A stretch of DNA of 64,000 nucleotides from an uncultured Gammaproteobacteria bacterium. GTDB lineage: Bacteria; Pseudomonadota; Gammaproteobacteria; UBA4575. The stretch covers positions 460,256 to 524,255 of the forward strand of contig CALSUC010000002.1 of assembly GCA_943789445.1 (NCBI GenBank). The letters run 5' to 3'. The notes beneath the pieces were generated by a model. It was not told the origin of the DNA, did no database searches, and saw nothing but the letters and a program-made list of their open reading frames with translations. Each line of letters opens with the position of its first letter. Positions within the stretch are counted from its first letter, which is position 1. Below, piece after piece: positions 1 through 35,071 of this stretch. The position numbers and the translations under genes are program-made.

Positions 1-666
1 GCTGATCAGGGTGATTTCGTGAGTAAATCAGGGTACTGGGCGCAATCAGATGGTCAGTATATCCATATAAAACAAATTGAAGATGGCCGTACGCCATATG
101 ATATTGAGCTTTTTGAATTTACAGCAGATTATCGTCTGCGACGTTACTTGACCGCCAGTTATGCAGATATTCAAAGCCAAGAGCAATGGCTTTTACATGA
201 TGTGAGTGAAAAGACCTTGGTTGGTGAAAGGATGCAGCAGAAAAACCATGACACGCTGCAATGGCAATCTTTTCTATCAGCTGAGCAGCTAGGCGTGATT
301 ATTTCCAGCCCACAGGCGCTCTCAATTACTGATCTGAACCAGTTTGTGCAAGGTTTGAAGCAACGTGGTGAAAAATCCTATCCTTTTGAAGTCTTGTTCT
401 GGCAGAAGCTAATGTCACCGCTAGCAGCCGGTATTATGATCGTGTTGGGTTTGTCTTTTGTTTTTGGGTCACAGAGACAGGTGAGTACGGGGCAGAGGAT
501 TACGATTGGCGTACTGACTGGGATGGGTTTCTATGTTTTCAGCCAAATGATCAATCATCTTGGCTTTGCCCTTGGCTGGCAGCCACTACTGGTGGCTGGA
601 TCACCTAATGCGATTGCGATTATTGCCTTGTTATTATTGGCATACCTACGCCAGGCTAAGGCTTAG
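1..666 (+). CDS. lptG: LPS export ABC permease LptG, 5'-truncated by window edge (C-terminal ~220 aa)
   Basis: The reading frame is open from base 1. The C-terminal TM-rich region and periplasmic domain match the LptF/LptG permease family (GIMIVLGLSF...GFALGWQP). Confidence 0.7.
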   Translation, partial: ADQGDFVSKSGYWAQSDGQYIHIKQIEDGRTPYDIELFEFTADYRLRRYLTASYADIQSQEQWLLHDVSEKTLVGERMQQKNHDTLQWQSFLSAEQLGVIISSPQALSITDLNQFVQGLKQRGEKSYPFEVLFWQKLMSPLAAGIMIVLGLSFVFGSQRQVSTGQRITIGVLTGMGFYVFSQMINHLGFALGWQPLLVAGSPNAIAIIALLLLAYLRQAKA

Positions 667-1646
667 AGTGCCGTTCGCTTGCTGTTAATAAATAAACCCT
701 GCTGCCTATCGTAGGCAAAGTCTTGGTATGACAGATGCCATTGTTTATCTTCTTGGCGTATTTCAAAAATTAGATATTGGGCGCGGTAGGGCTGTGCTTG
801 ACTGATGCTGCTGCAAGACGCGGCCCCAACTACGGGAATACTACGTTCTTCGTCTATCTGTAGCCTGTCATGAAAACGGCTATGGGCATGGCCATGCAGG
901 ATGAGTTCAACGGGTGTGTCGATTAAAGCCTCTATTAGCTCTTCTTGATTGATCAGCTCTTTGCGTGCCTTGACATGATTCTTGCTGACTGGGTGATGAA
1001 TCAAGAGCACTTTGCATAGGTTAGTGAGTTCTGGACGTTTTAATAGGGTCTTTAGTTTATTGATTTGTGCTGAGCTAATCTTCCCTGTTGCTTTAAACCA
1101 GGGGGCAGCAAAGACACTGGATAGACTGATGAAGGCAACTGGTCCTCGTATACGGACATGTGGATACATATTATTTAATGTGCTTAAGGCATCTTGCTCT
1201 AAAGCCTCATCTGGCTGTGGCATGTCATCGCCCAACATATAAGGCTGCCAATGATGAAAGGAGTGCTCCCAGCGAGCATTGACATAGAGGTCGTGGTTGC
1301 CTGGGATGACAGTGAGATTATCTGGTGTGGAGATCTGCTCTAGCCAGCTAGCGACCTGTTTAAATTCATCTTCTAGGCCAATATGGGTGAGATCTCCAGT
1401 CACCACATAATGGTCGATATGCTGTTGTTTCAATTGAGCGATGGCTATCTCTGCAATCTCACGTTGATGTGTATTACGACGTTTTTTTAGCCATGATAAA
1501 TAGCCTAGAAAGCGCTTGTTGAAGAGGTCTAAGGCCGATGCATTTTTGAGGTGCGAGAGATGAGGATCCGAAAGTTGCGCAAATCGGAAAGACTCATTAG
1601 CATGCGCTCCTTTTTTAGTGGTATCGTAATTCGAATTAATAGTCAT
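663..1646 (-). CDS. Calcineurin-like metallophosphoesterase
   Basis: Metallophosphoesterase motifs are present: (F)AQLSDPHL, GDLTH, GNHD and GHAH. It is divergent from the lipid operon, with only ~20-50 bp between the start codons. Confidence 0.75.
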   Translation of the reverse strand: MTINSNYDTTKKGAHANESFRFAQLSDPHLSHLKNASALDLFNKRFLGYLSWLKKRRNTHQREIAEIAIAQLKQQHIDHYVVTGDLTHIGLEDEFKQVASWLEQISTPDNLTVIPGNHDLYVNARWEHSFHHWQPYMLGDDMPQPDEALEQDALSTLNNMYPHVRIRGPVAFISLSSVFAAPWFKATGKISSAQINKLKTLLKRPELTNLCKVLLIHHPVSKNHVKARKELINQEELIEALIDTPVELILHGHAHSRFHDRLQIDEERSIPVVGAASCSSISQAQPYRAQYLIFEIRQEDKQWHLSYQDFAYDRQQGLFINSKRTAL

Positions 1647-1666
1647 CTCAGTGTCGACTCAATCTG

Positions 1667-2953
1667 TTGATTGTCGACCTTAACAAAAATAAAGCACATA
1701 TGTACTACCATCTTGTTAAACAATGCGGTGTTCCTCTTTGGGGTGTCAGCCCAGAGCAACGAGTCGCAAAAAATCTGGAAAAAGTAGGCGCCTTCGAACA
1801 GGTCGATGATCTTAGGTCATTGCAGCCTGATGATGCCATTTTAATCTTACGTTTAGACTATCTCTATGATGCCTACCTGCTGACTAAATTAGTTGCACAA
1901 CCCCATGTCAGTAGTAGCACACTTTTGAGTGATTCAAGTCAGGGTGCCTTGGTTGCAGCATGGACTTCGGTAGCAGCAGCGTCCCGCTTATTGACGCGGA
2001 TTGAGAATGAAGATATGGCTCAAGTGGTCGCTGAGGAAGAGGGTGATGCTGTCTCATTATTCTCACCGGAAGCACTGACTGGTGGATATGACCCTAAATT
2101 ACGTAAATTCAATCTATCGCATGTGGTTAAGGTAGTAGCAGAAGATCAGGTTCAGATTGAGAATTACCTCTACGATAAATCCTATAAAGGCATTACCGAT
2201 TTCGTCACTAAATGGTTTTGGCCAATACCCGCGAGACGTGTGGTAAGAAGTTGTGTTGAGAAGAATATTAGCCCGAATAAAGTGACCTCTATTGGTTGGT
2301 TGTTGACCGTGATTGCGGGTGTGCTTTTTTATCAAGGGCAGTTTGCTCTAGGATTGTTAGCGGCATGGCTGATGACTTTTTTGGATACCGTAGATGGTAA
2401 GTTGGCACGAGTCAGTTTGCAGTCAAGTAAGCTTGGACATTGGATGGATCATGGACTAGATATTATCCATCCACCCATATGGTATTGGTGCTGGGCACAG
2501 GGTTTGGCGCTAGATGAATTCAATGTTTTTGGACAGATGATTGCACTCGATAGCTTGCTCATCGTCATGTTACTCGCCTATGTTGGCGGTCGTCTATTTG
2601 AAGGTTTATTTCAGATCTCATTCGATAATATTGAGATTTTCTGCTGGAAGCCGATTGATTCTTATCATCGTTTATTCACCGCTAGACGTAACCCTTGCAT
2701 GGTGCTGCTTAGCATAGCGATATTTTTGATTAGCCCGCAGGCTGGCTTTATATGGGTTGTGCTTTGGAGCGCCTTATCCACTATTTTGCTTGCGCTAAGG
2801 TTTTTGCAGGCAGTGTTCTACCGTCTATTAGTCGGTCGTTTACGACCATGGATTGAAGATGTCGACCCAGAGCAGCCGAACCCATCACAGGTGATTCAGT
2901 GGTTTACTGGGCAACAAGCGATTACTACAATTTCTTCGCTGATTAAGCGATAA
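1667..2953 (+). CDS. CDP-alcohol phosphatidyltransferase family protein with ~200-aa N-terminal soluble domain of unknown function
   Basis: The canonical D-x2-DG-x2-AR...G-x3-D-x3-D motif is present (DTVDGKLARVSLQSSKLGHWMDHGLD), followed by a multi-TM C-terminus. The N-terminal half has no recognisable motif. An alternative start at ATG 1700 is possible. Confidence 0.7.
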   Translation: MIVDLNKNKAHMYYHLVKQCGVPLWGVSPEQRVAKNLEKVGAFEQVDDLRSLQPDDAILILRLDYLYDAYLLTKLVAQPHVSSSTLLSDSSQGALVAAWTSVAAASRLLTRIENEDMAQVVAEEEGDAVSLFSPEALTGGYDPKLRKFNLSHVVKVVAEDQVQIENYLYDKSYKGITDFVTKWFWPIPARRVVRSCVEKNISPNKVTSIGWLLTVIAGVLFYQGQFALGLLAAWLMTFLDTVDGKLARVSLQSSKLGHWMDHGLDIIHPPIWYWCWAQGLALDEFNVFGQMIALDSLLIVMLLAYVGGRLFEGLFQISFDNIEIFCWKPIDSYHRLFTARRNPCMVLLSIAIFLISPQAGFIWVVLWSALSTILLALRFLQAVFYRLLVGRLRPWIEDVDPEQPNPSQVIQWFTGQQAITTISSLIKR

Positions 2954-2971
2954 AGCATAGACTAAATTAGT

Positions 2972-3940
2972 ATGGATGCAGCTATTTCAATTACAGCGAT
3001 TAGCAACCCTAATAGTGGCCTGAATAAGCGCGGACAGTTTCGTCGTTTTTGTGAGGTGGTTGAATTATACCCACAGGTCCAACATGAGGTGACGTCGGTA
3101 GAAAGTGATATGGATCACGTCTTAGAGGCGTGTCAGCACGCCGCGATCCCAGTGATTGTTGTTAATGGTGGTGATGGCACTTTGCACAAAGTATTAAGCT
3201 TTTTGTCACGATCAGCCGCACAAGGGTATATGCCTAAATTAGCTATAATACGCGCAGGCACGACGAACATGACCTTTGGCGATATTGGATTGAAAGGTGA
3301 TTTAGCCGAACTATTTAAAGACCTTTTGGCTTATGTCTCAGGCCAAAAAAATAAAGTTAGAGAGTGCTCTAGGCCTATCTTGCGCATGCGAATACCGGCT
3401 GAAAATAAGGAAGTATGTGGTATGTTCTTTGGTGCAGGAGCGGTCTATTCAGGTATTTTATATTGTCGGCAGAATATTCATACGCGTGGTATCGCGGGTG
3501 AGTTTGGGCCAACATTAGCCATCTTGCGCTATCTCTTAGACTGGATCACTCGTGGCAAACTGATTCAATCTGCGGTGGGGCAGGCGCAGATTGATGAACA
3601 GTCTGTTATTGAGGGTGAATTTACAGTCATTTTGGCCTCTACTCTGCAACGCCTTATTGGAGGAATTTATCCATTTTGGGGTGATAGCAAATTCAACAAT
3701 GAGTTGGCCCTAACATTGATTAAATCCAATTCAAAAAAGTCATTGTTATCAAGTTTGCGGATACTACGTGGGCGGGCACCATGCAGAAATGATGATGGTT
3801 ATATGAGTGTGAAGGCAAAGGCAGTTAGGTTAATGATTAGGGGTGGCTTTACTTTAGATGGTGAGTTATTCGGTGGTGAAAATAAGGACAGTGAAGTATT
3901 TCTTGATGCTAATGCAATGGCACACTTTCTTACTCGATGA
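2972..3940 (+). CDS. YegS/DgkB-like lipid kinase (DAGK_cat superfamily)
   Basis: It carries the diacylglycerol-kinase catalytic-domain signature VVNGGDGTLHKV and is about 320 aa. An 18-bp gap separates it from the upstream gene. Confidence 0.7.
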   Translation: MDAAISITAISNPNSGLNKRGQFRRFCEVVELYPQVQHEVTSVESDMDHVLEACQHAAIPVIVVNGGDGTLHKVLSFLSRSAAQGYMPKLAIIRAGTTNMTFGDIGLKGDLAELFKDLLAYVSGQKNKVRECSRPILRMRIPAENKEVCGMFFGAGAVYSGILYCRQNIHTRGIAGEFGPTLAILRYLLDWITRGKLIQSAVGQAQIDEQSVIEGEFTVILASTLQRLIGGIYPFWGDSKFNNELALTLIKSNSKKSLLSSLRILRGRAPCRNDDGYMSVKAKAVRLMIRGGFTLDGELFGGENKDSEVFLDANAMAHFLTR

Positions 3941-4848
3941 AAAATATGGATACAAAGCTACTATTTCAGTGTCTAGATAAACAGCTTATTACTGTCGATG
4001 ATGTGATATTGACGGCGTTTGTTGAGGTGTTGCAACGTAAGTTTGATGCTTCTTTGCGTGCGATTATGTTCTATGGGTCATGTCTGCGTAGCCGCAAATA
4101 TAAAGATGCTATGTTGGATTTCTATGTCATCGTTGATGATTATCAAACAGCTTATGACTCAAAGACACACGCCGTGTTAAATGCCTGTTTAGCACCGAAT
4201 GTATACTTTCAAACAGTTGAAGTTGACGGTGTGAAAGTACAGGCAAAATATGCCGTGCTATCAGAAAAGGATTTACTGCTGCAAACATCTACACGTGCCT
4301 ATCATTCTTATTTCTGGGCGCGTTTTGCACAACCCTTTGCATTAATTTATCAAGCTGATGCACAGGCACGAATGCAGCTTATTCAAGCACAGCTTAATTC
4401 GATTACTACGATCTATACTAAGACTATTGGCCTATTCAACAGCCCTCCAACAGCGCAAGAGTTTTGGGTCGGTGCCTTGCAAAAGACATATTCTGCAGAA
4501 CTGCGTGCTGAAAGTAAGCTGCGCGCTGGTGTGATCTATGAATCAAATCAAAGGCATTATGACGAGGCCTTTAATACGCTTTTAAACATAGGTTTTAGCC
4601 ATTCGTCGCGCACATCGCGGTGGACAGCATGGAATTGGGTTATTCGTGCAGCCTGGGGCAAGTTATTGTCTGTCTTACGCCTGCTTAAAGCGGCAACCAC
4701 CTTTGAAAATGGGGTGGATTACTTGGCCTGGAAGATAGAACGACACAGTGGTGTGCATGTCGAAATTAACGACCGCCATCGAAAACACCCCTTTATATAT
4801 TGTTGGCCCATACTCTGGCGGCTTTGGCGTAAGGGTGCTGTTCAGTAG
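3937..4848 (+). CDS. Putative Tam41/MMP37-like nucleotidyltransferase (candidate CdsA-independent CDP-diacylglycerol synthase)
   Basis: Its start overlaps the kinase stop (ATGA), indicating translational coupling. N-terminal motifs FYGSCL..., DFYVIVDDY, VYFQT and KYAVLSEKDL resemble the Tam41/Mmp37 family. The family assignment was made by eye only. Confidence 0.45.
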   Translation: MKNMDTKLLFQCLDKQLITVDDVILTAFVEVLQRKFDASLRAIMFYGSCLRSRKYKDAMLDFYVIVDDYQTAYDSKTHAVLNACLAPNVYFQTVEVDGVKVQAKYAVLSEKDLLLQTSTRAYHSYFWARFAQPFALIYQADAQARMQLIQAQLNSITTIYTKTIGLFNSPPTAQEFWVGALQKTYSAELRAESKLRAGVIYESNQRHYDEAFNTLLNIGFSHSSRTSRWTAWNWVIRAAWGKLLSVLRLLKAATTFENGVDYLAWKIERHSGVHVEINDRHRKHPFIYCWPILWRLWRKGAVQ

Positions 4849-5025
4849 CACTTTTGTGCGTTGATTATTCGCCCTAATAGTATAAATATACAATTAATTA
4901 GGATATCTCGTAGTGTCTTTGGGCTATTTTTCGGTGTAAATCCCAAGACTTACTGAAATACTTAAGGTTTTTAAAGGAGAGGTTCACGTAAGGATTAGAT
5001 TAAGCAGCTAAGAGGTTAATTTGTT

Positions 5026-5307
5026 ATGGAATTGATTGACTATAATAAGATTAGACTTAAAAAATTAATGATCATTTATGGTAAGCCATCTAATAAAGTG
5101 GCTACTTTAATTGGAACAGTAACCGGTGACCATCTTTCTACCCGCACTGTGCAATCATGGAGTGCAGCACCTGGTTTGGTGAGTGCGCGTCCCTGTCCAG
5201 GTTGGGCCCTGTATATTCTTGAGAATGAATTACAGATGTTAGAAGAAGAGGAGGATGAGGACGTAGCTCCGCTACTGCCCCCTAAACTTCGTAAGCTCTT
5301 GGACTAA
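5026..5307 (+). CDS. Hypothetical small protein with acidic C-terminal tail
   Basis: A 93-aa ORF lies in an AT-rich gap with an AAGAGG-like RBS upstream. Its central segment resembles an HTH (KVATLIG...TVQSWS) and it ends in EEEEDED. It is convergent with ureG. Confidence 0.35.
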   Translation: MELIDYNKIRLKKLMIIYGKPSNKVATLIGTVTGDHLSTRTVQSWSAAPGLVSARPCPGWALYILENELQMLEEEEDEDVAPLLPPKLRKLLD

Positions 5308-5336
5308 GATCGCTGAGGGCTTCTTGATATCTAGGC

Positions 5337-5945
5337 TTAAGTTAGCATGCCTTTGTCTTTGATGAATTGCATGATTTCGGCCAAACCTTCTTCTTTTTTT
5401 AGATTGCTAAATAGAAAGGGTCTTTCACCGCGCATTTTCTTGGCGTCTCTCTGCATGACCTCTAACGATGCGCCTACCAATGGTGCCAAATCTGTTTTAT
5501 TGATGATCAGTAGATCAGACTTGGTAATTCCAGGACCACCTTTACGTGGTATTTTATCGCCTGCTGAGACGTCGATGACATAAATAGTTAAGTCTGACAG
5601 TTCTGGGCTAAAGGTTGCACTTAAGTTGTCGCCGCCACTTTCAATAAAGACGAAGTCTAGGTTTTTAAACTTACTGCAGAGCTCATCGACTGCTAATAGA
5701 TTCATTGAGGCATCTTCACGGATCGCAGTATGTGGGCAGCCACCGGTCTCTACGCCAATAATCCGCTCTTCTTCCAAGGCCTTATTATTAATAAGGAACT
5801 GGGCATCTTCTTTCGTATAGATGTCATTAGTGACGGCAGCTATCTCATAGTCATTCCGCATATTCATACATAATGTGCGTAATAATGCGGTTTTTCCTGA
5901 GCCAACTGGGCCGCCAACACCGATTCGTAAGACTTGTTTTTGCAT
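5337..5945 (-). CDS. ureG: Urease accessory GTPase UreG
   Basis: P-loop [11 protein letters not shown] is present. The length is 202 aa and it is the last gene of the ure cluster. Confidence 0.95.
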
Positions 5946-5971
5946 TGCTAATATTCCTTTTGTCTGGAGAG

Positions 5972-6694
5972 TTATGACCGAAATAATCGGCTATATTGTT
6001 CTTCGTGATGCATGCTTGCGAATACTAATCCGGGGCAACTGGCACCAATATTGTCGTCTTCTATATCTAAGCTTGCTGTAATAACATCATCTATCAAGGG
6101 TATCAGTTGCTGTAATACATGCTGGCCAGCTGTCTGTCCCAAAGGGATCAGCTTTATGGCAACACTGACTTGATTTTCCAACCAAGCCCAAAGCAACCCA
6201 TGGAGCGCGGCTTGTTCATCTATATGCCATTCAACGCAGGCAAGGCTGAAGATCGTGGCAAAACTACATTCTTGATCTTGCCATGCGATAACTTGGGTCA
6301 GGCCCTGATTCTTCAATAATCGAACTAGAGCCATACCTAGTTGACTGTCTTCAAGACGTAATTCACGAGTTTCTCGACTGGCTAATAAGTAAGCGTTCCA
6401 ATAATGCTGTTGATCTAGATCAGCAGTCTGATGCGCTCGGTATAGGCGCAGAAATAGGGGCAATTCTTGGTATAAAAAGCTTTGCTGTAAAACTATTGTG
6501 AGCCACTGCATGAGATCTTTTTCATTCTCTATGATGCCCTGGTCACAGGCAGATTCTAAACCCTGTGAATAGGCATAAGCACCAACAGGTAAGGCTGGGC
6601 TGCTCAGGCGTAAGAGCTGTAAAAGGGCGCTAGAACTAGTGTGCATGAGAGCTATGATAGGCGCCTGATTCTGGCTCAAAAGGAGCCAGTTCAT
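5972..6694 (-). CDS. ureF: Urease accessory protein UreF
   Basis: The UreF signature [20 protein letters not shown] is present. The maximal ORF overlaps ureE by 59 nt, so the real start is likely the internal Met at 6646. Confidence 0.85.
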
Positions 6695-7094
6695 GGATTA
6701 ATTCGATGCCGAAGGCGACTACCATCTCATCTAACACATGATCTTGTAGATAGCGTGCAAAGGTAGGTTGTATTTCTATCGGTACATGACGATTGCCTAA
6801 ATGGTAACAGCAGCGTGATAGTAGAAGTGGGTCGCTACTCTTTAAGGTACTGACAGCCTCGTCAGCAGCAATGATACGTACAGTTTCATCAGTTTCAGCC
6901 TGCACAATATCTCCACCACGTAGGATGATGCCTCTGGGTAAAAATAAGCCTACTTCTTGGCCGTTATCTAGTCGTGTCTTTAGGCGTGCTTTTTGTCTTA
7001 ATTCAAAGGCCAATGTCAGGCTTAAAGCAGTGTCACTGAATGTATTGTCAATGCTCATACTGGCGGCAGAATAATGTTTAGAGAGAGTGAGCAT
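6636..7094 (-). CDS. ureE: Urease accessory metallochaperone UreE
   Basis: UreE-family similarity (LLPRGIILRGGD, CYHLGNRHVP) and a His-rich C-terminus (HSSHAH). Confidence 0.9.
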   Translation of the reverse strand: MLTLSKHYSAASMSIDNTFSDTALSLTLAFELRQKARLKTRLDNGQEVGLFLPRGIILRGGDIVQAETDETVRIIAADEAVSTLKSSDPLLLSRCCYHLGNRHVPIEIQPTFARYLQDHVLDEMVVAFGIELIHELAPFEPESGAYHSSHAH

Positions 7095-7105
7095 ATTTGA
7101 CCCTA

Positions 7106-8809
7106 TTAGAATAAAAAATAACGTTGTGCCAGTGCGACTTCAGTCGCGGGTTCACAGACTAAAAGCTGACCATCGGCACGGACTTGATAGTTTTGTGGAT
7201 CGACTTCGATATGGGGTTGGTAAGTATTATGGATTAAATCCGCCTTACGTATAGTGCGTGTATTGCTGACCGCGATACACTGTTTTTGTAGACCTAATTG
7301 CTTTGCAATATCAGCTTCCAGCGCCGCTTGCGAAACAAAAGTGAAGCTAGTGGCATGATTGGCGCCAGCATAGGCACTAAACATAGACCGGTAATGCACT
7401 GGCTGCGGTGTTGGAATGGAGGCATTAGGGTCACCCATAGGTGCCGCTGCAATCATGCCTGCCTTCAAGATTAAGGCTGGCTTGGCACCAAAAAACATAG
7501 GGTCCCATAAGACTAGATCAGCCAGCTTACCAACCTCTACTGAACCGACATCTGCCGCGATTCCATGCGTGATGGCCGGATTAATTGTATATTTCGCAAT
7601 GTATCGTTTGGCCCGCATATTATCATTATTCATACTATCTTCTGCTAAGGCACCTCGTTGTTTTTTCATCTTGTCAGCGGTTTGCCAAGTGCGACTAATA
7701 ACTTCACCTACTCGGCCCATAGCCTGTGAATCTGATGCAATCATACTGAAGGCACCCAAATCATGAAGGATGTCTTCAGCTGCAATGGTTTCACGACGAA
7801 TACGTGATTCAGCGAAGGCGACGTCTTCAGCAATCTTGCTATCGAGGTGGTGACAAACCATTAACATATCTAGATGTTCATCAATGGTGTTATGCGTATA
7901 AGGGCGTGTTGGATTAGTGCTGGAAGGTAAGACATTAGCCTCACCACAAGCACGAATAATGTCAGGTGCATGACCGCCACCAGCACCTTCTGTATGGTAG
8001 GTGTGGATGGCGCGGCCTTTAAAAGCAGCAAGGGTATCTTCAACAAAGCCAGATTCATTCAATGTGTCGGTATGGATTGCAACTTGAATATCGTATTGTT
8101 CAGCAACGCTTAAACAGGTATCGATTGCGATAGGGGTAGTACCCCAATCCTCATGTAGTTTAAGGCCCATAGCGCCAGCAATTAGCTGTTCTTCCAGCGG
8201 GGCGGCAACACTCGCATTACCTTTGCCCATAAAACCTAAATTCATTGGGAAGGCATCAGCTGCTTGTAACATGCGATGAATATTCCAAGGGCCTGGTGTA
8301 CAGGTGGTTGCATTGGTGCCAGTAGCTGGTCCTGTTCCACCGCCTAACATGGTTGTGACACCTGACATCAAGGCTTCTTCAATTTGTTGCGGACAAATGA
8401 AATGGATATGTGCGTCGATGCCACCTGCTGTAATAATTTTACCTTCACCTGCAATCGCTTCAGTTCCCGGGCCAATAGCAATATCAATGTCTGACTGGAT
8501 ATCAGGGTTGCCAGCCTTGCCAATGGCTATGATGCGGCCATTCTTGATACCAATATCAGCTTTTACTATGCCCCAGTGATCAAGTATTAAGGCATTCGTT
8601 ATGACGCAGTCAACAACATCTGCAGCACAACCTTGTCCTTGCCCCATGCCATCACGAATGACTTTACCACCGCCAAATTTCACTTCTTCACCGTAGCGTG
8701 CAAAGTCCTTTTCGACTTCGATAATAATTTCTGTGTCACCCAGTCGAATTTTGTCACCGACTGTAGGTCCAAACATCTCTGCGTATGCCCGCCGACTCAT
8801 AGTGCTCAT
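7106..8809 (-). CDS. ureC: Urease alpha subunit UreC
   Basis: The protein is 567 aa and begins [27 protein letters not shown]. Active-site-region motifs match urease alpha. Confidence 0.97.
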
Positions 8810-8813
8810 AGTT

Positions 8814-9122
8814 TTAATCTAGATCCCCCATTATTTTCCCTTGGAAACCAAATATTTTACGTGCGCCAGCAAGTTCTATTAATTGGACTGTGCGAATTTG
8901 TCCCGGCTCAAATCGCACCGCAGTACCAGCAGGGATGTCTAGACGCATACCTTTAGTCTGCTCACGATCAAAATCTAATGCATTATTGGTCTCGTAGAAA
9001 TGGTAGTGCGAGCCGACTTGTATTGGGCGATCACCCATGTTGGAAACTACTAAGCTTTTGCGTTTGCGCCCAACATTGATCTCAATTTCGCCGTCGGCAA
9101 CGATAATTTCTCCAGGTATCAT
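8814..9122 (-). CDS. ureB: Urease beta subunit UreB
   Basis: It is 102 aa and begins MIPGEI...; it lies immediately upstream of ureC. Confidence 0.95.
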
Positions 9123-9137
9123 GCTCTACTCCAATGC

Positions 9138-9440
9138 CTAAATAATCGGTTCATGGACGGTAACTAATTTAGTGCCGTCTGGGAAAGTGGCTTCAACTTG
9201 TACCTCATGAATCATCCCAGCGATGCCATCCATGACGTCTTCTCTAGTTAAAATTTCACGACCATACTGCATTAATTCAGCAACTGTTTTGCCATCACGC
9301 GCACCCTCTAATATCTCACATGAGATGAGTGCAATAGCCTCAGGGTAATTCAGTTTCACACCTCTTTTTTTTCGCTTCTCTGCTAAAAGGCCAGCAGTGA
9401 ATAGTAATAACTTGTCTTTTTCTCTAGGTAATAATTCCAT
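9138..9440 (-). CDS. ureA: Urease gamma subunit UreA
   Basis: It is 100 aa and carries the [21 protein letters not shown]...R signature. Confidence 0.95.
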
Positions 9441-9461
9441 AATTTTTTCTACCTTTAAGTC

Positions 9462-10310
9462 TTAGGTTAACCAAATTCGTGGGATGCATGCTGGGCGTTT
9501 TAAGACTATTGGTCTGATTGTCTGCCATAGTTCTAAGAATAAGGTTTTAATCTGTTCTGCATAAGTTGCACTGGCGCGAATGACGAATATGTCTTGAATT
9601 ATGCTGCAGCCTGAGCGCAATTCTGGATGTTTTTCTAAAATATCAAGAATGATCTTTTTCTCGATTGTCTCATTATTTGCACGTATCAAAAAACTCCCAA
9701 TAGCCTCTGCAGCATGTAAGCCACAGGGTTGTGTTAAGAGTGGGCTAGAACCATCATAGCGATTACTTTCTATTAATAGTGGTTTGCCGTCTTGCCACAA
9801 TTCTAGAGTCTGAAAAATATGACCTGACTGAAACGAACGAGTTTGAGCAGGTAATCCAAGACATTGGATTTCCCATGCTAGTACACGACTATCTTTGGTG
9901 TAATCAATACGTGTGATGGTTCGTGCTTGGGCAGCATCAAAATAAACTGTCTCTTGTGGCAGCCATTCTATACTCGCACCTTCAGCGCATGTTATGCGTT
10001 GTTCTTGTTTCGCAATTGGTCCAATACTACGGTAGAACTTGGTTGCTCCCGGGGTGGTGATTAAACCATGCGCTTTAGCATCTAGTTTGACATCTAAGCG
10101 CAACTCGTCACCACCAGCGATACCTCCAGGAGGGTGTAATAAAACAACATGACAGCAATCTGACTGTTCTGGATAAAACGGTTTTTGAACCGCAAGTGGT
10201 CCAAAATGTGTTCGGTCAGTTAGAAAGGTTTTTCCATCTTTATTGATGAATTTTAAACGTAAACTAGCTTGCCACGATGAATCCCATATGGCATCTGACT
10301 GTGTGGTCAT
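9462..10310 (-). CDS. ureD: Urease accessory protein UreD/UreH
   Basis: It is 282 aa with UreD-family similarity and lies at the head of the ure structural genes. Confidence 0.85.
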   Translation of the reverse strand: MTTQSDAIWDSSWQASLRLKFINKDGKTFLTDRTHFGPLAVQKPFYPEQSDCCHVVLLHPPGGIAGGDELRLDVKLDAKAHGLITTPGATKFYRSIGPIAKQEQRITCAEGASIEWLPQETVYFDAAQARTITRIDYTKDSRVLAWEIQCLGLPAQTRSFQSGHIFQTLELWQDGKPLLIESNRYDGSSPLLTQPCGLHAAEAIGSFLIRANNETIEKKIILDILEKHPELRSGCSIIQDIFVIRASATYAEQIKTLFLELWQTIRPIVLKRPACIPRIWLT

Positions 10311-10492
10311 TTTTTAGCGATAGCAAATGCAATGATTGTGACAGGGAATGCGAGCAGGACTAGCCACTCAAAATGACTGTGTATCATCTGTAGGGGATGT
10401 GCGCTAATAGGGTGGGCGAAAATATTACTGCTATTAAGTAGCAAGATAGTGACTAATATGGATTTCACGTTCATTTGTTTTCCTCGTTGGGC

Positions 10493-11191
10493 TTATACTT
10501 TTAAATAGCGATCAATTAATTCATCGTCAAGTTTTTCTATACTACCTACTGCAACGTTACGACCTTTTTCCATAATGCAGAAATGACTGCCGACTCGACG
10601 AGCAAAGGGTAATTTTTGTTCTACTAAAAGAACAGTCAGTCCAAATTCTTGGTTTAAGCGTATTATAATATCGCCAATTTCACGAACAATATTCGGTTGT
10701 ATCCCCTCAGTAGGTTCATCCAAGATCAATAATTCAGGTTCTATTGCAAGCGCACGGCCAATAGCTAATTGCTGTTGCTGCCCTCCAGAAAGGTCTCCGC
10801 CACGACGATTTTTCATTTCTTTTAGGACTGGGAATAACTCAAATATGATATCGGGTAGTTTTTTTGAGCCACTGCTGATTAATCCTGTTTGTAAGTTTTC
10901 AGTAATACTGAGTTGAGAAAATATTTCGCGGCCTTGTGGTACATAACCAATTTTTAGCTTGGCGCGAGTTTCTGCGGTTGACTTGCTTAATTCATGTTGG
11001 CGAAAAGTGATTGAGCCTTTTCTAATCTTTTCTAAACCCATAATACTTTTTAGTAAGGTTGATTTACCAACACCATTGCGACCCATCAGGCAGGTAATGC
11101 TTCCTTCCTTAATGGCAAGTTTTAAATCCCATAGAGTATGACTTTCGCCATAATATTGGTTGATTCCATCTAACGTTAATAAATTAGCCAC
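10493..11191 (-). CDS. urtE: Urea ABC transporter ATP-binding protein UrtE
   Basis: ABC ATPase motifs (Walker A GRNGVGKST, LSGGQQQ) are present. The size and position match urtE of the branched-chain-type urea transporter. Confidence 0.85.
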   Translation of the reverse strand: MANLLTLDGINQYYGESHTLWDLKLAIKEGSITCLMGRNGVGKSTLLKSIMGLEKIRKGSITFRQHELSKSTAETRAKLKIGYVPQGREIFSQLSITENLQTGLISSGSKKLPDIIFELFPVLKEMKNRRGGDLSGGQQQQLAIGRALAIEPELLILDEPTEGIQPNIVREIGDIIIRLNQEFGLTVLLVEQKLPFARRVGSHFCIMEKGRNVAVGSIEKLDDELIDRYLKV

Positions 11192-11930
11192 CTAAGTAGA
11201 CCTCAATAACTTTCTCATTGTTGGTAATGCTATCCATAGGGCCTTCGGCTAAAACTTGACCTTGATGTAGTACGGTTACCTTATTTGCTATAAGGCGAAC
11301 AAATTCCATATCATGTTCAACTACGATAACCGATTGAGTGCGTGCTAAGTTTTGCAATAATTCAGCGGTTTTTTCGGTTTCCTGATAGGTCATGCCAGCA
11401 ACAGGCTCATCGACTAATAGGACCTGTGGATTCTGTGTGATTAGCATGCCTATTTCTAACCATTGTTTCTGGCCATGTGACAACTCGCCAGCAAGCCGAT
11501 ACTGCTCATTCGTTAGTCCGATAATTTCTAATGACTGCTCTATCTTTTCGATTTGTGGCTGCTTTAAGCGATGGAATAAATTAGCAAAGACACTACGGTC
11601 TCCTTCTAGGGCTAAGCATAGATTTTCATGTACCGTGTGCTGCTCAAATACTGTTGGCTTTTGAAACTTTCGGCCAATGCCTAGGTTGGCAATTTCTGCC
11701 TCGCTTTTGCCGATTAGATTTATATTTTCCGCAAAGATGATCTCTCCGGTATCAGGTTTTGTTTTTCCTGTAATGATGTCCATCATGGTTGTTTTGCCTG
11801 CACCATTTGGCCCAATGACACAACGTAATTCATTGCGCTCAACATAAAGGCTGAGGTTATTAATAGCCTGGAAGCCATCAAAACTAACCGATACATCATT
11901 TAGGTAGAGGATAGTTTCTTTACTTTTCAT
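11184..11930 (-). CDS. urtD: Urea ABC transporter ATP-binding protein UrtD
   Basis: ABC ATPase motifs GPNGAGKTT and LSHGQKQ are present. It overlaps urtE by 8 nt. Confidence 0.85.
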   Translation of the reverse strand: MKSKETILYLNDVSVSFDGFQAINNLSLYVERNELRCVIGPNGAGKTTMMDIITGKTKPDTGEIIFAENINLIGKSEAEIANLGIGRKFQKPTVFEQHTVHENLCLALEGDRSVFANLFHRLKQPQIEKIEQSLEIIGLTNEQYRLAGELSHGQKQWLEIGMLITQNPQVLLVDEPVAGMTYQETEKTAELLQNLARTQSVIVVEHDMEFVRLIANKVTVLHQGQVLAEGPMDSITNNEKVIEVYLGG

Positions 11931-13071
11931 CAGTACTGCCTCGCTTTAGTTTGTCACTGCTTGAATTACGCGAAAAGCGTGTGCGTAGTTGAGCATAAAG
12001 ACCGACTAAGCCTTTTGGCATGAATACGGTGACAAATACAAAGATACCACCAAGGATGAAAAGCCAGACCTCAGGGGCCCATGCTGTAAAAATAGTTTTT
12101 GCATAATTCACAACAAAGGCACCTAGGACGGCACCATATAGCGTGCCACGACCACCAATGGCGACCCAGATAACCATTTCAATGGAGCGAATAGGAGCGA
12201 ATTCACTAGGGTTTATGATACCAACCTGTGGTACGTATAAAGCGCCCGCAAGACCTGCTAATAGGGCAGAGATAACGAAGATGAAAAGTTTAATATGCTC
12301 ATCACGATAACCCATAAACCTAACTCGACTTTCAGCATCACGTATCGCCATGGTTAAACTGCCCAATCGGGACTGTGCTATGAATCTGCATATGGCATAA
12401 CCTAATAATAAAGCAGCAGCAGAGGCGATGAAAAGTGCATTGCGAGTGTTATCAGCTTGTAGGTTGAAACCAAGGATTTCCTTGAAGTCTGTGAGACCAT
12501 TGTTGCCACCAAATCCAAAGTTGTTTTGGAAGAAGGCAAGCATTAAAGCATAGGTCATAGCCTGCGTGATTATAGATAGATAGACGCCTGTTACACGTGA
12601 ACGAAACGCCAGCCAGCCGAAGACAAAAGCAAGTATTCCCGGCGCTAAAAAGACCATCAATAGCATCAATGGAAACTGGTCAAAGCCTTGCCAATACCAA
12701 GGTAACTCTGACCAGTTTAGGAAGACCATAAAATCAGGTAGTTCTGGATTGCTATAAACGCCCCTATCCCCAATCTGACGCATTAGATACATGCCCATTG
12801 CATAGCCACCTAATGCAAAGAATGCACCATGACCTAAGCTTAAAATACCTAAATAACCCCAAACCAAATCGACCGATAAGGCAAGAAGGGCATAGCATAG
12901 ATATTTCCCTATCAAGGTCACACTATAGGTTGAGACATGAAATTCTGAGTCTGAAGGTATGATTAAGTTACAGACTGGAACAATGACTGCGAGTGCAATG
13001 CAGCAGAAAGTGAGTACACGACTTCCGGTATCATTTAATAACAGCCGACCAATGAGTGAATGCTGAAGCAT
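11920..13071 (-). CDS. urtC: Urea ABC transporter permease UrtC
   Basis: It is a branched-chain-amino-acid-type permease (LivM-like), overlapping urtD by 11 nt. Confidence 0.85.
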   Translation of the reverse strand: MLQHSLIGRLLLNDTGSRVLTFCCIALAVIVPVCNLIIPSDSEFHVSTYSVTLIGKYLCYALLALSVDLVWGYLGILSLGHGAFFALGGYAMGMYLMRQIGDRGVYSNPELPDFMVFLNWSELPWYWQGFDQFPLMLLMVFLAPGILAFVFGWLAFRSRVTGVYLSIITQAMTYALMLAFFQNNFGFGGNNGLTDFKEILGFNLQADNTRNALFIASAAALLLGYAICRFIAQSRLGSLTMAIRDAESRVRFMGYRDEHIKLFIFVISALLAGLAGALYVPQVGIINPSEFAPIRSIEMVIWVAIGGRGTLYGAVLGAFVVNYAKTIFTAWAPEVWLFILGGIFVFVTVFMPKGLVGLYAQLRTRFSRNSSSDKLKRGSTDEK

Positions 13072-13074
13072 GAC

Positions 13075-14727
13075 TTAGTTCTCGGCTGAACGACCCTTCA
13101 GAGCAAACATACCCCTAGGTCGTTTTTGAATGAATAATATGATGAAGACTAAGATCACTACCTTTGCAATAACAGCACCGGTCATTGGCTCTAAATATTT
13201 ATTTGCGATGCCTAGGGTCATTGCACCAAAGAACGTACCCCATAAATTACCAACACCACCAAATACCACCACCATAAAGGAATCAATAATGTAGGCTTGG
13301 CCTAAATTAGGACCAACGTTAGTGAGCTGGCTAAGTGCAACACCAGCCATGCCAGCGATACCTGAGCCTAAGCCAAAGGTATAAGCATCGATCCAATCAG
13401 TACGAATACCCATGGCCTTAGCCATGGTGCGATTTTGTGTGACGGCACGTACTTGAAGTCCAAAACGTGTTTTCTGTAAAAGCAGCATTAAACCGATTAA
13501 TACTGCTATCGAAAATAGAATGATATAGAGGCGGTTATAGGTTAGTGCTAAAGCAGGATTGATTTGCAAAGAGCCACTCATCCATTCTGGAGTAGCTACT
13601 GCTCTATTTTGTGGTGAGATTATGGTGCGTACAGCTTGCTGTAGTATTAAGCTAATACCGAAAGTTGCGAGCAAAGTTTCTAAAGGACGGCCATAAAGAT
13701 GGCGAATTATGCTGCGTTCGATAATAACGCCAACCAGTGCAGTGAAGACAAAGGCAATCGGAATTGCGATCAGAGGTGAGTAAGCAATCGCGTTAGGCAT
13801 GATTTGCTGAATAATATAGGTAGTGTAGGCGCCTAACATAAGCATCTCGCCATGAGCCATATTGATTACACCCATAACACCAAAGGTGATGGCTAGGCCA
13901 ACTGCAGCTAGTAGTAAAACAGAGCCCAGACTGACACCAAAGAAGATGTTTTCAAGCTGTTTATACCAGCCTAGCTTAAAATCAATTTTTTCTATGCTGG
14001 CTTCTAGAGTGTGTTTTAGTTCTTGTTTTTCTGTGCTTAGAGGGTTTCCAGTGATACTTCTTAAGCCATTGCTTAAGGTATTTTTAACTTCAGGGTAGAG
14101 CGAATTAGAAAGCGTTTTTACTGCGCTAAGTTGTTCGTCGACACTGCCATTCTTGAATGAATATAAAGCGATGCCGGTTTGCATAATTTCGACTATAGAG
14201 TCATCTTTTTCTATGGTCAGCCGGCCTGTAAATAATTGAAGGCCACTTTTATTGATGTCTTTGAGGATTTCTTCAGCTGCTTGCTGGCGCACTGCTTTGT
14301 TCGGACTGTCCAAGGAGAGTTTGGCAATCTCCACTTTAAGTTGACGTCTTAGTTTATTATTAATACCTACTTTTTTAATTCTTTTTTTTGCGATAACACC
14401 TAAATCAGTGCCGCTAATAGCGTTACGTATCACAGCGTTTTTATTATCCAACTTGGCAATAACGATAGTTTTTGTTTTCTTCAGAAAATAGATATTGCCA
14501 TCTAAAAGTTGCTGAAGGATGACTAGCGCTTGTGAGTCTTTTGAGGTGGCGATAGCCTGTATATATTCTTTTTTCTTTGTGAAACTCTTTGATGAGAGGC
14601 CATTGATAGCGTCATGGAAGATGGTTTCTGAGATGGTGTCCGGTTTTATTTCTATGTCGTTAGACCAACTTAGGCCTGCACTGAATAAGCTGCCACATAA
14701 GATAAGTAGAAGAGCGAAATTTCGCAT
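13075..14727 (-). CDS. urtB: Urea ABC transporter permease UrtB, long form with ~250-aa N-terminal periplasmic domain
   Basis: The C-terminal 300 aa form a LivH-like permease. The N-terminus has a signal peptide plus a soluble domain. Confidence 0.8.
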   Translation of the reverse strand: MRNFALLLILCGSLFSAGLSWSNDIEIKPDTISETIFHDAINGLSSKSFTKKKEYIQAIATSKDSQALVILQQLLDGNIYFLKKTKTIVIAKLDNKNAVIRNAISGTDLGVIAKKRIKKVGINNKLRRQLKVEIAKLSLDSPNKAVRQQAAEEILKDINKSGLQLFTGRLTIEKDDSIVEIMQTGIALYSFKNGSVDEQLSAVKTLSNSLYPEVKNTLSNGLRSITGNPLSTEKQELKHTLEASIEKIDFKLGWYKQLENIFFGVSLGSVLLLAAVGLAITFGVMGVINMAHGEMLMLGAYTTYIIQQIMPNAIAYSPLIAIPIAFVFTALVGVIIERSIIRHLYGRPLETLLATFGISLILQQAVRTIISPQNRAVATPEWMSGSLQINPALALTYNRLYIILFSIAVLIGLMLLLQKTRFGLQVRAVTQNRTMAKAMGIRTDWIDAYTFGLGSGIAGMAGVALSQLTNVGPNLGQAYIIDSFMVVVFGGVGNLWGTFFGAMTLGIANKYLEPMTGAVIAKVVILVFIILFIQKRPRGMFALKGRSAEN

Positions 14728-14804
14728 GGTTATTCACTGGGTTAAAGATTACTGGGCACTTTCTTGTGCCCAGTGATCTTATGCTTAAGCTTAAGCGGTT
14801 CGAT

Positions 14805-16106
14805 TTAAAAGTTTTGCCCTGAGCACTTCTTGGTTTCTGTGTTGTAGTTACCACAGTTGATTGCTGGATCAGCCCAGTCCGACACAATGACTGCGCTTTC
14901 TGGTAGGAAGTCAGTCCAAGCATCACCGACTACTTCACCTTCAGTCTGCCAAACGATTTCAAATTGACCATCATCTTGAATCTCACCAATGAGTACTGGT
15001 TTTGATAGATGGTGGTTAGAGTTCATTACCGCTGTACCACCGGTTAAGTTAGGTAAAGACAGGCCATACATTGCTGGTCGTACTTTATCGACTTCAGTGC
15101 TGTCTACTTTACTAACTGCTTCGGCCCACATCTTAAAACCAATGTATGTTGCTTCCATTGGATCATTAGTTACGCGTGAATCATCACCAATGAAGCTCTG
15201 CCACGTTTCAATGAAGGTGTCATTGGTATCGCTCTCAGCTGATTGGAAATAGTTCCATGCTGCTAGATGACCGACTAGAGGTGTGGTATCGATGCCTGAT
15301 AATTCTTCTTCGCCAACAGAGAATGCAACGACTGGAATATTATCTGCAGAGAGACCTTGGTTACCCAGCTCTTTGTAGAAGGGTACGTTTGCATCACCAT
15401 TAATGGTGGAAACAACAGCAGTTTTCTTGCCAGTTGAACCAAATGATTTGATATCAGAGACAATAGTCTGCCAGTCAGAATGACCAAATGGAGTGTAGTT
15501 AATCATGATGTCTTTTGCAGCAACACCTTTGAGCTTTAGGTAAGACTCTAAGATTTTATTGGTAGTGCGTGGGTAAACGTAATCGGTGCCCGCTAAGACC
15601 CAACGCTTAACGCCTTGATCCATTAAGTAATCTACTGCAGGAATGGCTTGTTGATTAGGTGATGCACCAGTGTAAAAGACATTTTTAGATGACTCTTCAC
15701 CCTCATACTGCACTGGGTAAAATAAGAGGCCATTTAGTTCTTCTACTACAGGTAACACGGATTTGCGTGAAACAGACGTCCAGCAACCGAAAATGACATC
15801 TACTTCATGTACTTCGATAAGCTCACGCATTTTTTCAGCAAACAAAGGCCAGTCAGATGCAGGATCAACTACTACAGCTTCTAATTTTTTACCTAGTAAA
15901 CCACCAGCTTTATTTTGTTCTTCGATCATCATTAAAACGGTGTCTTTTAATGTGGTCTCACTGATTGCCATAGTGCCAGATAAGGAATGTAAAACACCTA
16001 CCTTAATAGTGTCGCTATGATCATCGGCTTGTGCACTCAGACTAAACAGGCTGAGTGTTAACAAACAAATGCTTAATAGAGAATGTTTCTTCATTGTGTA
16101 CTCCAT
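14805..16106 (-). CDS. urtA: Urea ABC transporter substrate-binding protein UrtA
   Basis: It is a 433-aa periplasmic binding protein with a signal peptide, of the LivJ/UrtA family. A GGAG RBS precedes the start codon. Confidence 0.9.
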   Translation of the reverse strand: MEYTMKKHSLLSICLLTLSLFSLSAQADDHSDTIKVGVLHSLSGTMAISETTLKDTVLMMIEEQNKAGGLLGKKLEAVVVDPASDWPLFAEKMRELIEVHEVDVIFGCWTSVSRKSVLPVVEELNGLLFYPVQYEGEESSKNVFYTGASPNQQAIPAVDYLMDQGVKRWVLAGTDYVYPRTTNKILESYLKLKGVAAKDIMINYTPFGHSDWQTIVSDIKSFGSTGKKTAVVSTINGDANVPFYKELGNQGLSADNIPVVAFSVGEEELSGIDTTPLVGHLAAWNYFQSAESDTNDTFIETWQSFIGDDSRVTNDPMEATYIGFKMWAEAVSKVDSTEVDKVRPAMYGLSLPNLTGGTAVMNSNHHLSKPVLIGEIQDDGQFEIVWQTEGEVVGDAWTDFLPESAVIVSDWADPAINCGNYNTETKKCSGQNF

Positions 16107-16521: not shown

Positions 16522-17523
16522 ATGCAGACTCAAATTGCAAACGACGAATATAAAATTGGTGCAGTTTCCAAAATTACCGGTATCGGTACGGAGACCTTAC
16601 GGGCGTGGGAGCGACGTTATAAAGCGGTAGTTCCTAAGCGTTCTGAGTCTGGTGATCGTGTCTATGATGCCGAAAATCTATCCAAGCTCTTTATGCTGAA
16701 AAACCTAGTTGATGTCGGTAACTCCATTGGCACCATTGCTCATCTTTCCTTGAGCGAGCTTAAAGTGAAATGGGAAAATTCAAATCAGGCGGCAAATAGT
16801 ATGAAATGGGCGGAAGTTGATAACGTCCAGCCACGTGAGTTTAGCCGTACTCAAAAGTGTAGGGTCTTACTTCTAGGTGAAGAGTTTCCGCTACGTGTTT
16901 TAGATGGTATGTCTGATTTCGAAGGGGTTGAGGTTGTTGAACAGCCCATGGGATTAGATGAGTGGGCAGAAAGCAAAGATGACAATCCAATACATGTGGT
17001 AATTATTGAGCGACCAACGATTAATAGTGATACACGTGAATACATATCACAGATCTTAAAGTGTACAGGTGCTTGGCACGTCATTGCCCTATATGGTTTT
17101 GGTTCGCAGTCTGAGATTAATAAACTACAAAGTCCGCAAGTGAGTGCAATCCGTTCTTCAATTGATGTCTATGAACTTGCCCGACTTTGTGTTGATAGAG
17201 TCGGTGGTGATTCAAAGTTTGTTACGACTACTGCGGTCGGAACGGTTTACATGGAAGAGTCGATACCAACGCGTCGCTATAGTTCAAAGCAGTTGGAAAG
17301 CCTCTCACGGTTCCCATCATCTATTCAGTGCGAATGTCCGCAGCATATTTCGGACCTGATTAAAAACTTAGTCGCCTTCGAGATCTATAGTGCTGAATGT
17401 GAGAATAAGAATGATGATGATGCTAGGTTACATTCCTTCTTACATGCAACAACAGCGCAATCACGCGCTATTTTAGAAGATGCCTTAGCGCACTTACTGA
17501 AGTATGAAAACATTAGTATCTAG
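16522..17523 (+). CDS. MerR-family HTH regulator with long non-canonical C-terminal domain
   Basis: The N-terminal MerR-type HTH (YKIGAVSKITGIGTETLRAWERRY) is followed by ~260 aa containing a receiver-like fold segment (VLLLGEE...HVVIIER) and a Cys-containing tail. It is divergent from urtA. Confidence 0.7.
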   Translation: MQTQIANDEYKIGAVSKITGIGTETLRAWERRYKAVVPKRSESGDRVYDAENLSKLFMLKNLVDVGNSIGTIAHLSLSELKVKWENSNQAANSMKWAEVDNVQPREFSRTQKCRVLLLGEEFPLRVLDGMSDFEGVEVVEQPMGLDEWAESKDDNPIHVVIIERPTINSDTREYISQILKCTGAWHVIALYGFGSQSEINKLQSPQVSAIRSSIDVYELARLCVDRVGGDSKFVTTTAVGTVYMEESIPTRRYSSKQLESLSRFPSSIQCECPQHISDLIKNLVAFEIYSAECENKNDDDARLHSFLHATTAQSRAILEDALAHLLKYENISI

Positions 17524-17544
17524 TGCGTAGATACTTTTTTCGGA

Positions 17545-17580
17545 ACCAAAAAAAGACCCGCTTTTGCGGGTCTTTTTTTA
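17545..17580. terminator. Bidirectional rho-independent terminator
   Basis: The sequence is A-run, GACCCGC, tttt loop, GCGGGTC, T-run. It lies between the convergent MerR-like and ferredoxin genes. Confidence 0.85.
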
Positions 17581-17605
17581 TCTAGCCTTTTAAATGTAAA
17601 AGGTT

Positions 17606-17920: not shown

Positions 17921-18042
17921 GTCTTAAATCTCCAAATGTAAATTATTAAATATTAAATTATTTTTAAACTAGCCGGATTGGTTGCCGGTGATTATCCAAA
18001 AATGGTTCTTTGCTGATGAATTTGAGAGTAAGTCGTCTTTAA

Positions 18043-18222: not shown

Positions 18223-18437
18223 TGTACTGTCTTTATATTTTTATTGTGTACACAGTATAACCCAGTTCATCTGTATATCGATTATTCAATGCTACTCTGT
18301 ACAGTCTTTGTTTGTTTAATTTTCCCGGTTTATAGGTGGAATATGTATTCCACCTACTCTTAATCCAGCAATCGTTGACGACACTCTGTTTCGTATAGGG
18401 ATTGAACAGGCTAGACGTTCCTAACTGGTGTAGCTAT

Positions 18438-35067: not shown

Positions 35068-35071
35068 GGCG

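Follow-up and report, generated by a model that had tools for sequence, protein, structure and literature searches.

We analysed a stretch of 64,000 nt (hereafter the window) from the genome of an uncultured marine gammaproteobacterium (assembly GCA_943789445.1, contig CALSUC010000002.1, positions 460,256 to 524,255). Near its left end lie four genes, coding for a metallophosphoesterase, a CDP-alcohol phosphotransferase, a DAGK-type lipid kinase and a nucleotidyltransferase of the Tam41 fold. Very probably they form the head-group end of a complete sphingolipid locus of bacterial type and correspond to CC_1158, cpgA, cpgB and cpgC, which make ceramide phosphoglycerate (CPG) and ceramide diphosphoglycerate (CPG2) in Caulobacter crescentus (PMC9393093, PMC11324152, PMC10331486, PMC12275187). 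A preliminary description of this DNA had been aware of no characterised bacterial pathway of this composition; the Caulobacter genes constitute one. The locus is a gammaproteobacterial representative of a pathway that has been described before and characterised in part; it is no new kind of system.

Gene content and the Caulobacter counterparts

The open reading frame (ORF) list confirmed the four genes as first described, and Pfam the families of the first three. The metallophosphoesterase gene (663–1646, 327 aa) is on the minus strand; the plus strand carries the genes of the CpgA-like transferase (1700–2953, 417 aa), the CpgB-like kinase, a predicted ceramide kinase (2972–3940, 322 aa), and the CpgC-like Tam41-fold protein (3937–4848, 303 aa). 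The coupling claimed for the plus-strand genes was found as well: an 18-bp gap (2954–2971) is followed by a 4-nt ATGA overlap (3937–3940).

The mechanically defined ORF of the transferase begins at TTG 1667 (1667–2953, 428 aa). The true start is almost certainly ATG 1700: homologs are 408–425 aa long and have the N-terminus MYYH, ATG 1700 is invariant across four relatives while TTG 1667 is not, and the protein was called as 417 aa on a contig identical to the window. With this start the divergent spacer becomes 53 bp. The phosphoesterase is thus divergent from the operon, as described, although not at the near-zero spacing (about 20 bp) given initially.

In Caulobacter, CC_1158 codes for a calcineurin-type phosphoesterase, CC_1159 (CpgA) for a PF01066 protein with an N-terminal cytoplasmic domain, CC_1160 (CpgB) for a ceramide kinase, CC_1161 (CpgC) for a protein of IPR015222 (Tam41) and CC_1157 for a HIT protein (PMC11324152, S1 Text). 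CC_1156 and CC_1155 are LptF2 and LptG2, CC_1154 is bCerS, CC_1153 is a MobA/CofC-like nucleotidyltransferase and CC_1152 is CpgD; the region CC_1152–CC_1165 also holds spt, acpR, cerR and aasR (PMC11324152). The genes cpgA, cpgB and cpgC are also listed as CCNA_01217, CCNA_01218 and CCNA_01219 (CCNA_01216–CCNA_01219 being ACL94681–ACL94684). In lipidomics of deletion mutants (PMC9393093), loss of cpgB removed ceramide phosphate, CPG and CPG2, loss of cpgC removed CPG and CPG2 with ceramide phosphate retained, and loss of cpgA removed CPG2 only. In the CC_1158 mutant the phenotype is partial. CDP-glycerate, proposed as the soluble donor for CpgA, is the product of CpgD (PMC12275187). The idea that the PF01066 enzyme acts right after the Tam41-like step does not agree with these data, as in Caulobacter it is needed for the second phosphoglycerate, with CDP-glycerate as the proposed donor.

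The sphingolipid locus upstream of the window

A public contig (L092) carries the exact phosphoesterase of the window and is 99.99% identical to window positions 1–11500. Upstream it has, in this order, genes for LptG, LptF, an NTP_transferase protein, a MobA-like nucleotidyltransferase, a 382-aa protein (GNAT-like by family clustering only) and an FA_hydroxylase protein; further upstream are a 148-aa HIT-like protein, an AMP-binding protein, an Epimerase protein, an acyl carrier protein (ACP) and the start of an Aminotran_1_2 (Spt-like) gene. All five ceramide-synthesis types (spt, acpR, cerR, aasR and bcerS) are found just upstream on this contig, and the locus has both a CpgD-like (LicC/IMPCT-like) and a CC_1153-like (MobA/CofC-like) nucleotidyltransferase besides the LptF/LptG pair. 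From these genes it follows that the window holds one end of a complete sphingolipid locus of this genome. The module had been described as self-contained; on L092 and on contigs of relatives it is instead the end of a locus of ∼15 genes.

The whole block is contiguous on contigs of relatives with 78–95% identity. In one of them (L088, 78–90% identical) the aminotransferase passes the NCBIfam equivalog model of serine palmitoyltransferase (582.6 bits; cutoff 500); the AMP-binding protein of this contig is a fatty acyl-AMP ligase. The relatives have an FA hydroxylase beside the CerS-like gene, and a GT2 protein, a 2OG-Fe(II) oxygenase and an Elm1-domain protein beyond spt (on L088, hydroxylase 9147–9866, GT2 15000–15998, oxygenase 17047–17745 and a 782-aa Elm1-domain protein 17782–20130). 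These accessory genes hint at hydroxylated, perhaps glycosylated products. When spt was sought inside the window, the sole class I/II aminotransferase (33889–35136) proved to be generic PRK05957, not Spt; neither lptC2 nor a flippase gene was seen within reach of the locus.

The window itself begins with the 3′ part of lptG (19–666, plus strand; the gene start lies upstream of the window), which matches Pfam LptF_LptG with E = 1e-35 and TIGR04408 (LptG) with E = 2e-53. The full gene on L092 codes for 358 aa and has lptF beside it. The lptF/lptG genes of relatives (L086:4604–6730 and L088:4210–6408) pass the NCBIfam equivalog cutoffs, with 243–303 bits versus 230/240. By equivalog scores, the lptF/lptG genes of the locus would be annotated as ordinary lipopolysaccharide (LPS) permeases.

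Conservation of the gene neighbourhood

Scanning species-representative genomes, we found at least 589 relatives of the Tam41-like protein, in Gammaproteobacteria, Nitrospirales, Kordiimonas, Sphingomonadales, Desulfobacterales, Nitrococcus mobilis and Calditrichota. To define neighbour families, all ORFs from 86 loci were clustered, and the clusters that recurred were annotated. The neighbours of the Tam41-like gene were DAGK (69 loci), LptFG (47), a GNAT protein of ∼383 aa (43), Metallophos (43), a MobA-like nucleotidyltransferase (37), AMP-binding (37), CDP-OH (32), NTP_transferase (23), Epimerase (23), an Spt-like AONS-type aminotransferase (17) and ACP (11).

Among the 41 species-representative loci with at least 8 kb of sequence on each side (the full-flank set), a ceramide-synthesis marker stood beside the Tam41-like gene in 38; the LptFG pair adjoined it in 27 and the metallophosphoesterase family in 24. 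Conservation of the neighbourhood, named at the outset as a check on the module, was borne out. In 57 of 74 species-representative loci the kinase gene immediately precedes the Tam41-like gene on the same strand, mostly at a distance of 10 nt or less. Distant relatives retain all four genes (phosphoesterase, transferase, kinase and Tam41-like), placed after lptF–lptG. Two loci (L067 and L061) have LptFG, HIT, Metallophos, CDP-OH, DAGK, Tam41-like and Spt genes in the Caulobacter order. Such an arrangement is far beyond chance, and the kinase/Tam41-like pair appears as a conserved core of sphingolipid loci in Gammaproteobacteria, Alphaproteobacteria, Nitrospirales, Desulfobacterales and Calditrichota.

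Many loci (L041, L059, L068, L069, L072, L074, L075, L082 and others) have the kinase/Tam41-like pair without the PF01066 and CpgD-like genes. They carry Elm1-domain proteins and, in some cases, sulfotransferases, which suggests that they build alternative head groups on the same first steps.

The cultured species Pseudomonas asuensis (GCA_042660065.1, L091) has the same locus without the phosphoesterase. Its AMP-binding, CDP-OH and MobA-like genes look split (by sequencing error or decay, possibly), and this locus was not used.

The metallophosphoesterase

The product of the minus-strand gene is a calcineurin-type phosphoesterase (Pfam Metallophos, E = 3e-11) with all metal-binding motifs intact (DPH, GD, GNHD and GHAH). 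The preliminary description had compared it with LpxH. The LpxH model scored 17 bits versus a cutoff of 134 and covered 44 residues; this weak C-terminal match (E = 0.0025) is far under the equivalog cutoff, and the best relative in the PDB is Lmo2642 (E = 2e-6).

That match, together with the adjacent lptF/lptG genes, which in close relatives pass the equivalog cutoffs, might be taken to indicate a module for modification of LPS or lipid A. We consider such a function extremely improbable. The locus contains no genes of lipid A or core biosynthesis, and lptFG paralogs within sphingolipid loci are documented: LptF2/G2 are required for sphingolipid transport, and many sphingolipid loci of alpha- and gammaproteobacteria were reported to contain them (bioRxiv 10.64898/2026.04.12.717747). 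Given the sub-cutoff LpxH score and the closeness to Lmo2642, both the LpxH analogy and the idea of LPS modification were rejected.

A published comparison found no CC_1158 ortholog in six comparison genomes (four by tables, A. vinelandii and P. luteola by text), whereas the phosphoesterase is broadly conserved in the loci surveyed here. Its association with the pathway may be more regular than published work implies.

The Tam41-like protein

Searched alone, the 303-aa protein had no usable match in Pfam or NCBIfam, and a phmmer search against the PDB was also empty. It has thousands of homologs, part of them with PF09139; in a set of 45, this family matched 16 at E ≤ 0.01 (best E = 2e-9) with no competing family. 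A profile built from the 45 homologs retrieved Tam41 of Schizosaccharomyces pombe from the PDB (E = 2e-6), with the motifs YGS, KY[AG]V, RFxQP and Y..[ED].R aligned. For the AlphaFold model (predicted local distance difference test, pLDDT, 89), Foldseek placed three Tam41 entries first. The protein has the nucleotidyltransferase and winged-helix domains of the Tam41 fold and carries an aromatic, basic C-terminal helix. By profile and structure, then, the original Tam41/MMP37 assignment stands at the level of fold and superfamily, and not at that of the Pfam Mmp37 model applied to the protein's own sequence. The model adds structural evidence that CpgC-type proteins are true Tam41-fold enzymes.

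The CDP-alcohol phosphotransferase

The transferase matches Pfam CDP-OH_P_transf (PF01066) with E = 3e-7 and 31.4 bits, above the gathering cutoff of 22. The CDP-alcohol motif noted earlier is complete: the signature DTVDGKLARVSLQSSKLGHWMDHGLD (D-x2-DG-x2-AR-x8-G-x3-D-x3-D) occupies residues 229–254 of the 417-aa form and is present in 31 of the 33 members of the transferase cluster.

For the AlphaFold2 model of the transferase (pLDDT 91), the top Foldseek match was AF2299 (4o6n/4o6m), aligned over ∼390 of 417 residues with E = 3.5e-10 and a target-normalised template modelling (TM) score of 0.68; the bifunctional IPCT-DIPPS (4mnd) was aligned as well. Lower ranks, with weak scores, were taken by the MurU, MobA and IMPCT nucleotidyltransferases. 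AF2299 is also the best PDB match by sequence, including a weak match in the N-terminal part. The N-terminal domain, at first described as having no recognisable motif, is by structure the cytidylyltransferase-like domain of AF2299/IPCT-DIPPS (about residues 1–175, with the boundary between 175 and 200). No Pfam or NCBIfam nucleotidyltransferase model matched residues 1–175, and by eye the G-x-G-x-R nucleotide-binding loop is not obvious in the sequence. Because no nucleotidyltransferase family model matches, the domain is probably non-catalytic, the cytidylyltransferase being supplied by a separate gene.

The lipid kinase and its substrate

The kinase matches Pfam DAGK_cat (E = 4e-14), has intact NPNSG and GGDGT motifs and, having no hydrophobic segment, is predicted to be soluble. 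Against the NCBIfam equivalogs of the YegS/DgkB type all scores were far under cutoff (the best, TIGR00147, 40.5 bits versus 118.65). The YegS/DgkB label of the preliminary description can be kept for the general catalytic domain but not as an equivalog assignment. Such sub-cutoff scores fit the report that CpgB-type ceramide kinases form a separate clade (PMC10331486).

That the kinase makes a lipid phosphate agrees with its domain; the lipid is most likely ceramide rather than diacylglycerol (DAG), as the genes sit in a ceramide-synthesis locus and 38 of the 41 full-flank loci have a ceramide-synthesis marker. The module had initially been read as a self-contained glycerophospholipid pathway, in which DAG would be converted to phosphatidic acid and, independently of CdsA, to CDP-DAG, from which the PF01066 enzyme would pass the phosphatidyl group to a novel alcohol, with trimming by the phosphoesterase. 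The solved Tam41 enzymes are indeed CTP:phosphatidate cytidylyltransferases, and in vitro CpgB phosphorylates DAG and ceramide about equally well (PMC10331486). Even so, this pathway seems very improbable to us, given the ceramide-synthesis locus around the genes here and in 38 of 41 other species. Besides, deletion of cpgB in Caulobacter leaves phosphatidic acid levels unchanged, cpgA is dispensable for the step that follows cpgC, and the transferase has the AF2299/DIPPS architecture, of which DIPPS (the member with known activity) uses soluble CDP-inositol as donor.

A proposed pathway and the identity of the head group

All genes of the pathway are present; we infer every activity in this organism, largely by analogy with Caulobacter. 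The Spt, ACP, acyl-ACP synthetase, reductase and GNAT proteins encoded upstream would supply ceramide. The DAGK-type kinase would convert it to ceramide-1-phosphate, the reaction demonstrated biochemically for Caulobacter CpgB. By analogy with Tam41 chemistry, the Tam41-fold enzyme would most plausibly transfer CMP from CTP to ceramide-1-phosphate, giving a CDP-activated ceramide, which with glycerate could yield ceramide phosphoglycerate, a conversion for which cpgC is required in Caulobacter. The upstream LicC/IMPCT-like nucleotidyltransferase is predicted to make CDP-glycerate, as Caulobacter CpgD does, and the transferase could then pass phosphoglycerate from CDP-glycerate to the lipid to form di-phosphoglycerate ceramide, a step with genetic support in Caulobacter. 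The metallophosphoesterase may assist this last conversion, and the adjacent LptF/LptG proteins may export the anionic sphingolipid towards the outer membrane.

More tentatively, and with the odds somewhat against it, the Tam41-fold enzyme of this widespread kinase/Tam41-like pair could make CDP-ceramide from ceramide-1-phosphate and CTP, and so provide the activation step that is missing from bacterial phosphosphingolipid synthesis. To our knowledge, no such liponucleotide has been described. If the proposal is true, loci that swap the PF01066 enzyme, Elm1 and sulfotransferase genes would use the same activated ceramide for different head groups.

The same sphingolipid context and enzyme logic could also serve another head group (phospho-inositol, phospho-glycerol, or a glycosylated or sulfated ceramide), the nucleotidyltransferases then activating a different small phospho-alcohol. 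The nearest solved and NCBIfam relatives of the transferase are inositol-phosphate enzymes (AF2299, PIP synthases and IPCT-DIPPS), and the accessory genes by the kinase/Tam41-like pair vary among loci (Elm1, sulfotransferase, GT2 and desaturase). We still regard such a product as unlikely, for the same genome has the full set linked to CPG2 (PF01066, LicC/IMPCT-like, MobA/CofC-like, kinase and Tam41-like genes; PMC11324152), and the locus showed neither a myo-inositol-phosphate synthase nor any other gene for a head-group precursor.

Several observations weigh against a phosphoglycerate pathway of the Caulobacter type. The window's 303-aa protein gave no match to PF09139 at E ≤ 1. Orthology with the Caulobacter genes is only probable, as judged from protein domains, the order of the genes, their placement in one locus with spt and published descriptions. 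Identity to alphaproteobacterial counterparts is modest, at 26–40% (36–40% for the Tam41-like protein and 26–31% for the kinase), so the head-group specificity could differ. The hydroxylase, GT2, 2OG-Fe oxygenase and Elm1 genes of the relatives are not among the 17 genes of CC_1152–CC_1168 (PMC11324152, S1 Text); the final lipid may therefore be further decorated. The organism is uncultured, and its head group could be other than phosphoglycerate. On balance we hold to the assignment as counterparts of CC_1158, cpgA, cpgB and cpgC.

Operon borders and genomic surroundings

The divergent intergenic region (1647–1699, 53 bp) contains two copies of GTCGAC and presumably holds promoters in both directions. 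A promoter scan found no consensus match in it, and promoter hits did not exceed the number expected from shuffled sequence. Over 101 nt including the spacer, mean column identity is ∼94% in an alignment of four relatives whose proteins are only 78–95% identical. The spacer is a candidate operator or promoter region. A MarR-type regulator is present within the cluster of some deltaproteobacterial loci.

At the other side of the phosphoesterase gene, its 3′ end and the lptG stop overlap convergently by 4 nt. The plus-strand operon likely ends at a terminator-like hairpin (4827–4859), with a 15-pair stem over the stop codon of the last gene and a T-rich tail; this end is only suggestive, the total of such hairpins in the region being not above the shuffled expectation. 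Just past the operon, a 93-aa ORF (5026–5307, plus strand) with an acidic C-terminal stretch had no family match; its position is kept in the gammaproteobacterial relatives L086, L001 and L009, with 67–84% identity.

Directly beside the lipid operon, on the minus strand, lie a complete urease operon (ureDABCEFG) and, beyond it, five transporter-like genes (together 5337–16106). Judged by their counterparts on identical or near-identical contigs, the five code for two ABC ATPases, a pair of branched-chain-type permeases and one periplasmic binding protein, which together resemble a urea-type ABC transporter. Relatives of 78–95% identity share the junction of the lipid and urease operons; more distant ones have flagellar motor genes there. 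Within the urease alpha-subunit gene (7106–8809, minus strand), Rfam 5_ureB_sRNA matched in antisense at 8374–8660 (plus strand; 107.7 bits, E = 2e-27), which may be mere conserved urease coding sequence and not a real antisense RNA. The rest of the window is of housekeeping character (urease, urea ABC transporter, citrate synthase, aconitase, purB, fumC, mnmA, hflD and clpA).

The exact proteins of the window occur on 25–42 public contigs, the longest of 1.06 Mb. Their 90%-identity clusters also include proteins from marine metagenome-assembled genomes at NCBI ('Gammaproteobacteria bacterium') and from a Tara Oceans sample, and the lineage seems to be common in the sea. The closest match to the Tam41-like protein among species-representative genomes has 46% identity; the species is therefore not among the representatives.

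Comparison with known systems

The Caulobacter cpg locus shares with the window the four domain types and the plus-strand order of transferase, kinase and Tam41-like gene. In both, the phosphoesterase gene is beside the transferase gene, the kinase gene is directly upstream of the Tam41-type gene and an lptFG pair is adjacent; the lptG of the window, as the second gene of an lptF–lptG pair, holds a position equivalent to that of CC_1156/CC_1155 (LptF2/LptG2). Each locus further has a CerS-like GNAT, two nucleotidyltransferases, a HIT protein, acyl-ACP synthetase, reductase, ACP and Spt; overall the gene set and, for the most part, its order are those of CC_1152–CC_1165. The host differs, being an uncultured marine gammaproteobacterium, and the spt block is located on the other side of lptFG. 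The locus of the window's genome has an extra FA hydroxylase; those of relatives also have GT2, a 2OG-Fe oxygenase and a large Elm1-domain protein.

The soluble lipid kinases YegS and DgkB have the catalytic domain and the GGDGT motif in common with the window kinase, and differ in equivalog scores. A search of the PDB for a solved structure of CpgB or CpgD found none. The Tam41/Mmp37 CDP-diacylglycerol synthases (6ig2 and 6ig4 from S. pombe, 7ecd from Firmicutes) are 15–17% identical to the window protein; the lipid substrate of the solved enzymes is phosphatidate, whereas here the genomic context suggests ceramide-1-phosphate. AF2299 and IPCT-DIPPS of Archaeoglobus fulgidus (4o6m/4o6n and 4mnd) have the same whole-protein architecture as the window transferase, with a cytidylyltransferase-like cytoplasmic domain and a six-helix transmembrane CDP-alcohol phosphotransferase domain bearing the full signature. 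Identity to them is only 13–16%, and the acceptor of the window enzyme is probably a lipid.

These likenesses place a full predicted anionic-sphingolipid pathway, with an LptFG pair in its locus, in an uncultured marine gammaproteobacterium. The structural evidence for a Tam41 fold in CpgC-type proteins and for the AF2299/DIPPS architecture in CpgA-type proteins sharpens the question of the route from ceramide-1-phosphate to ceramide phosphoglycerate.

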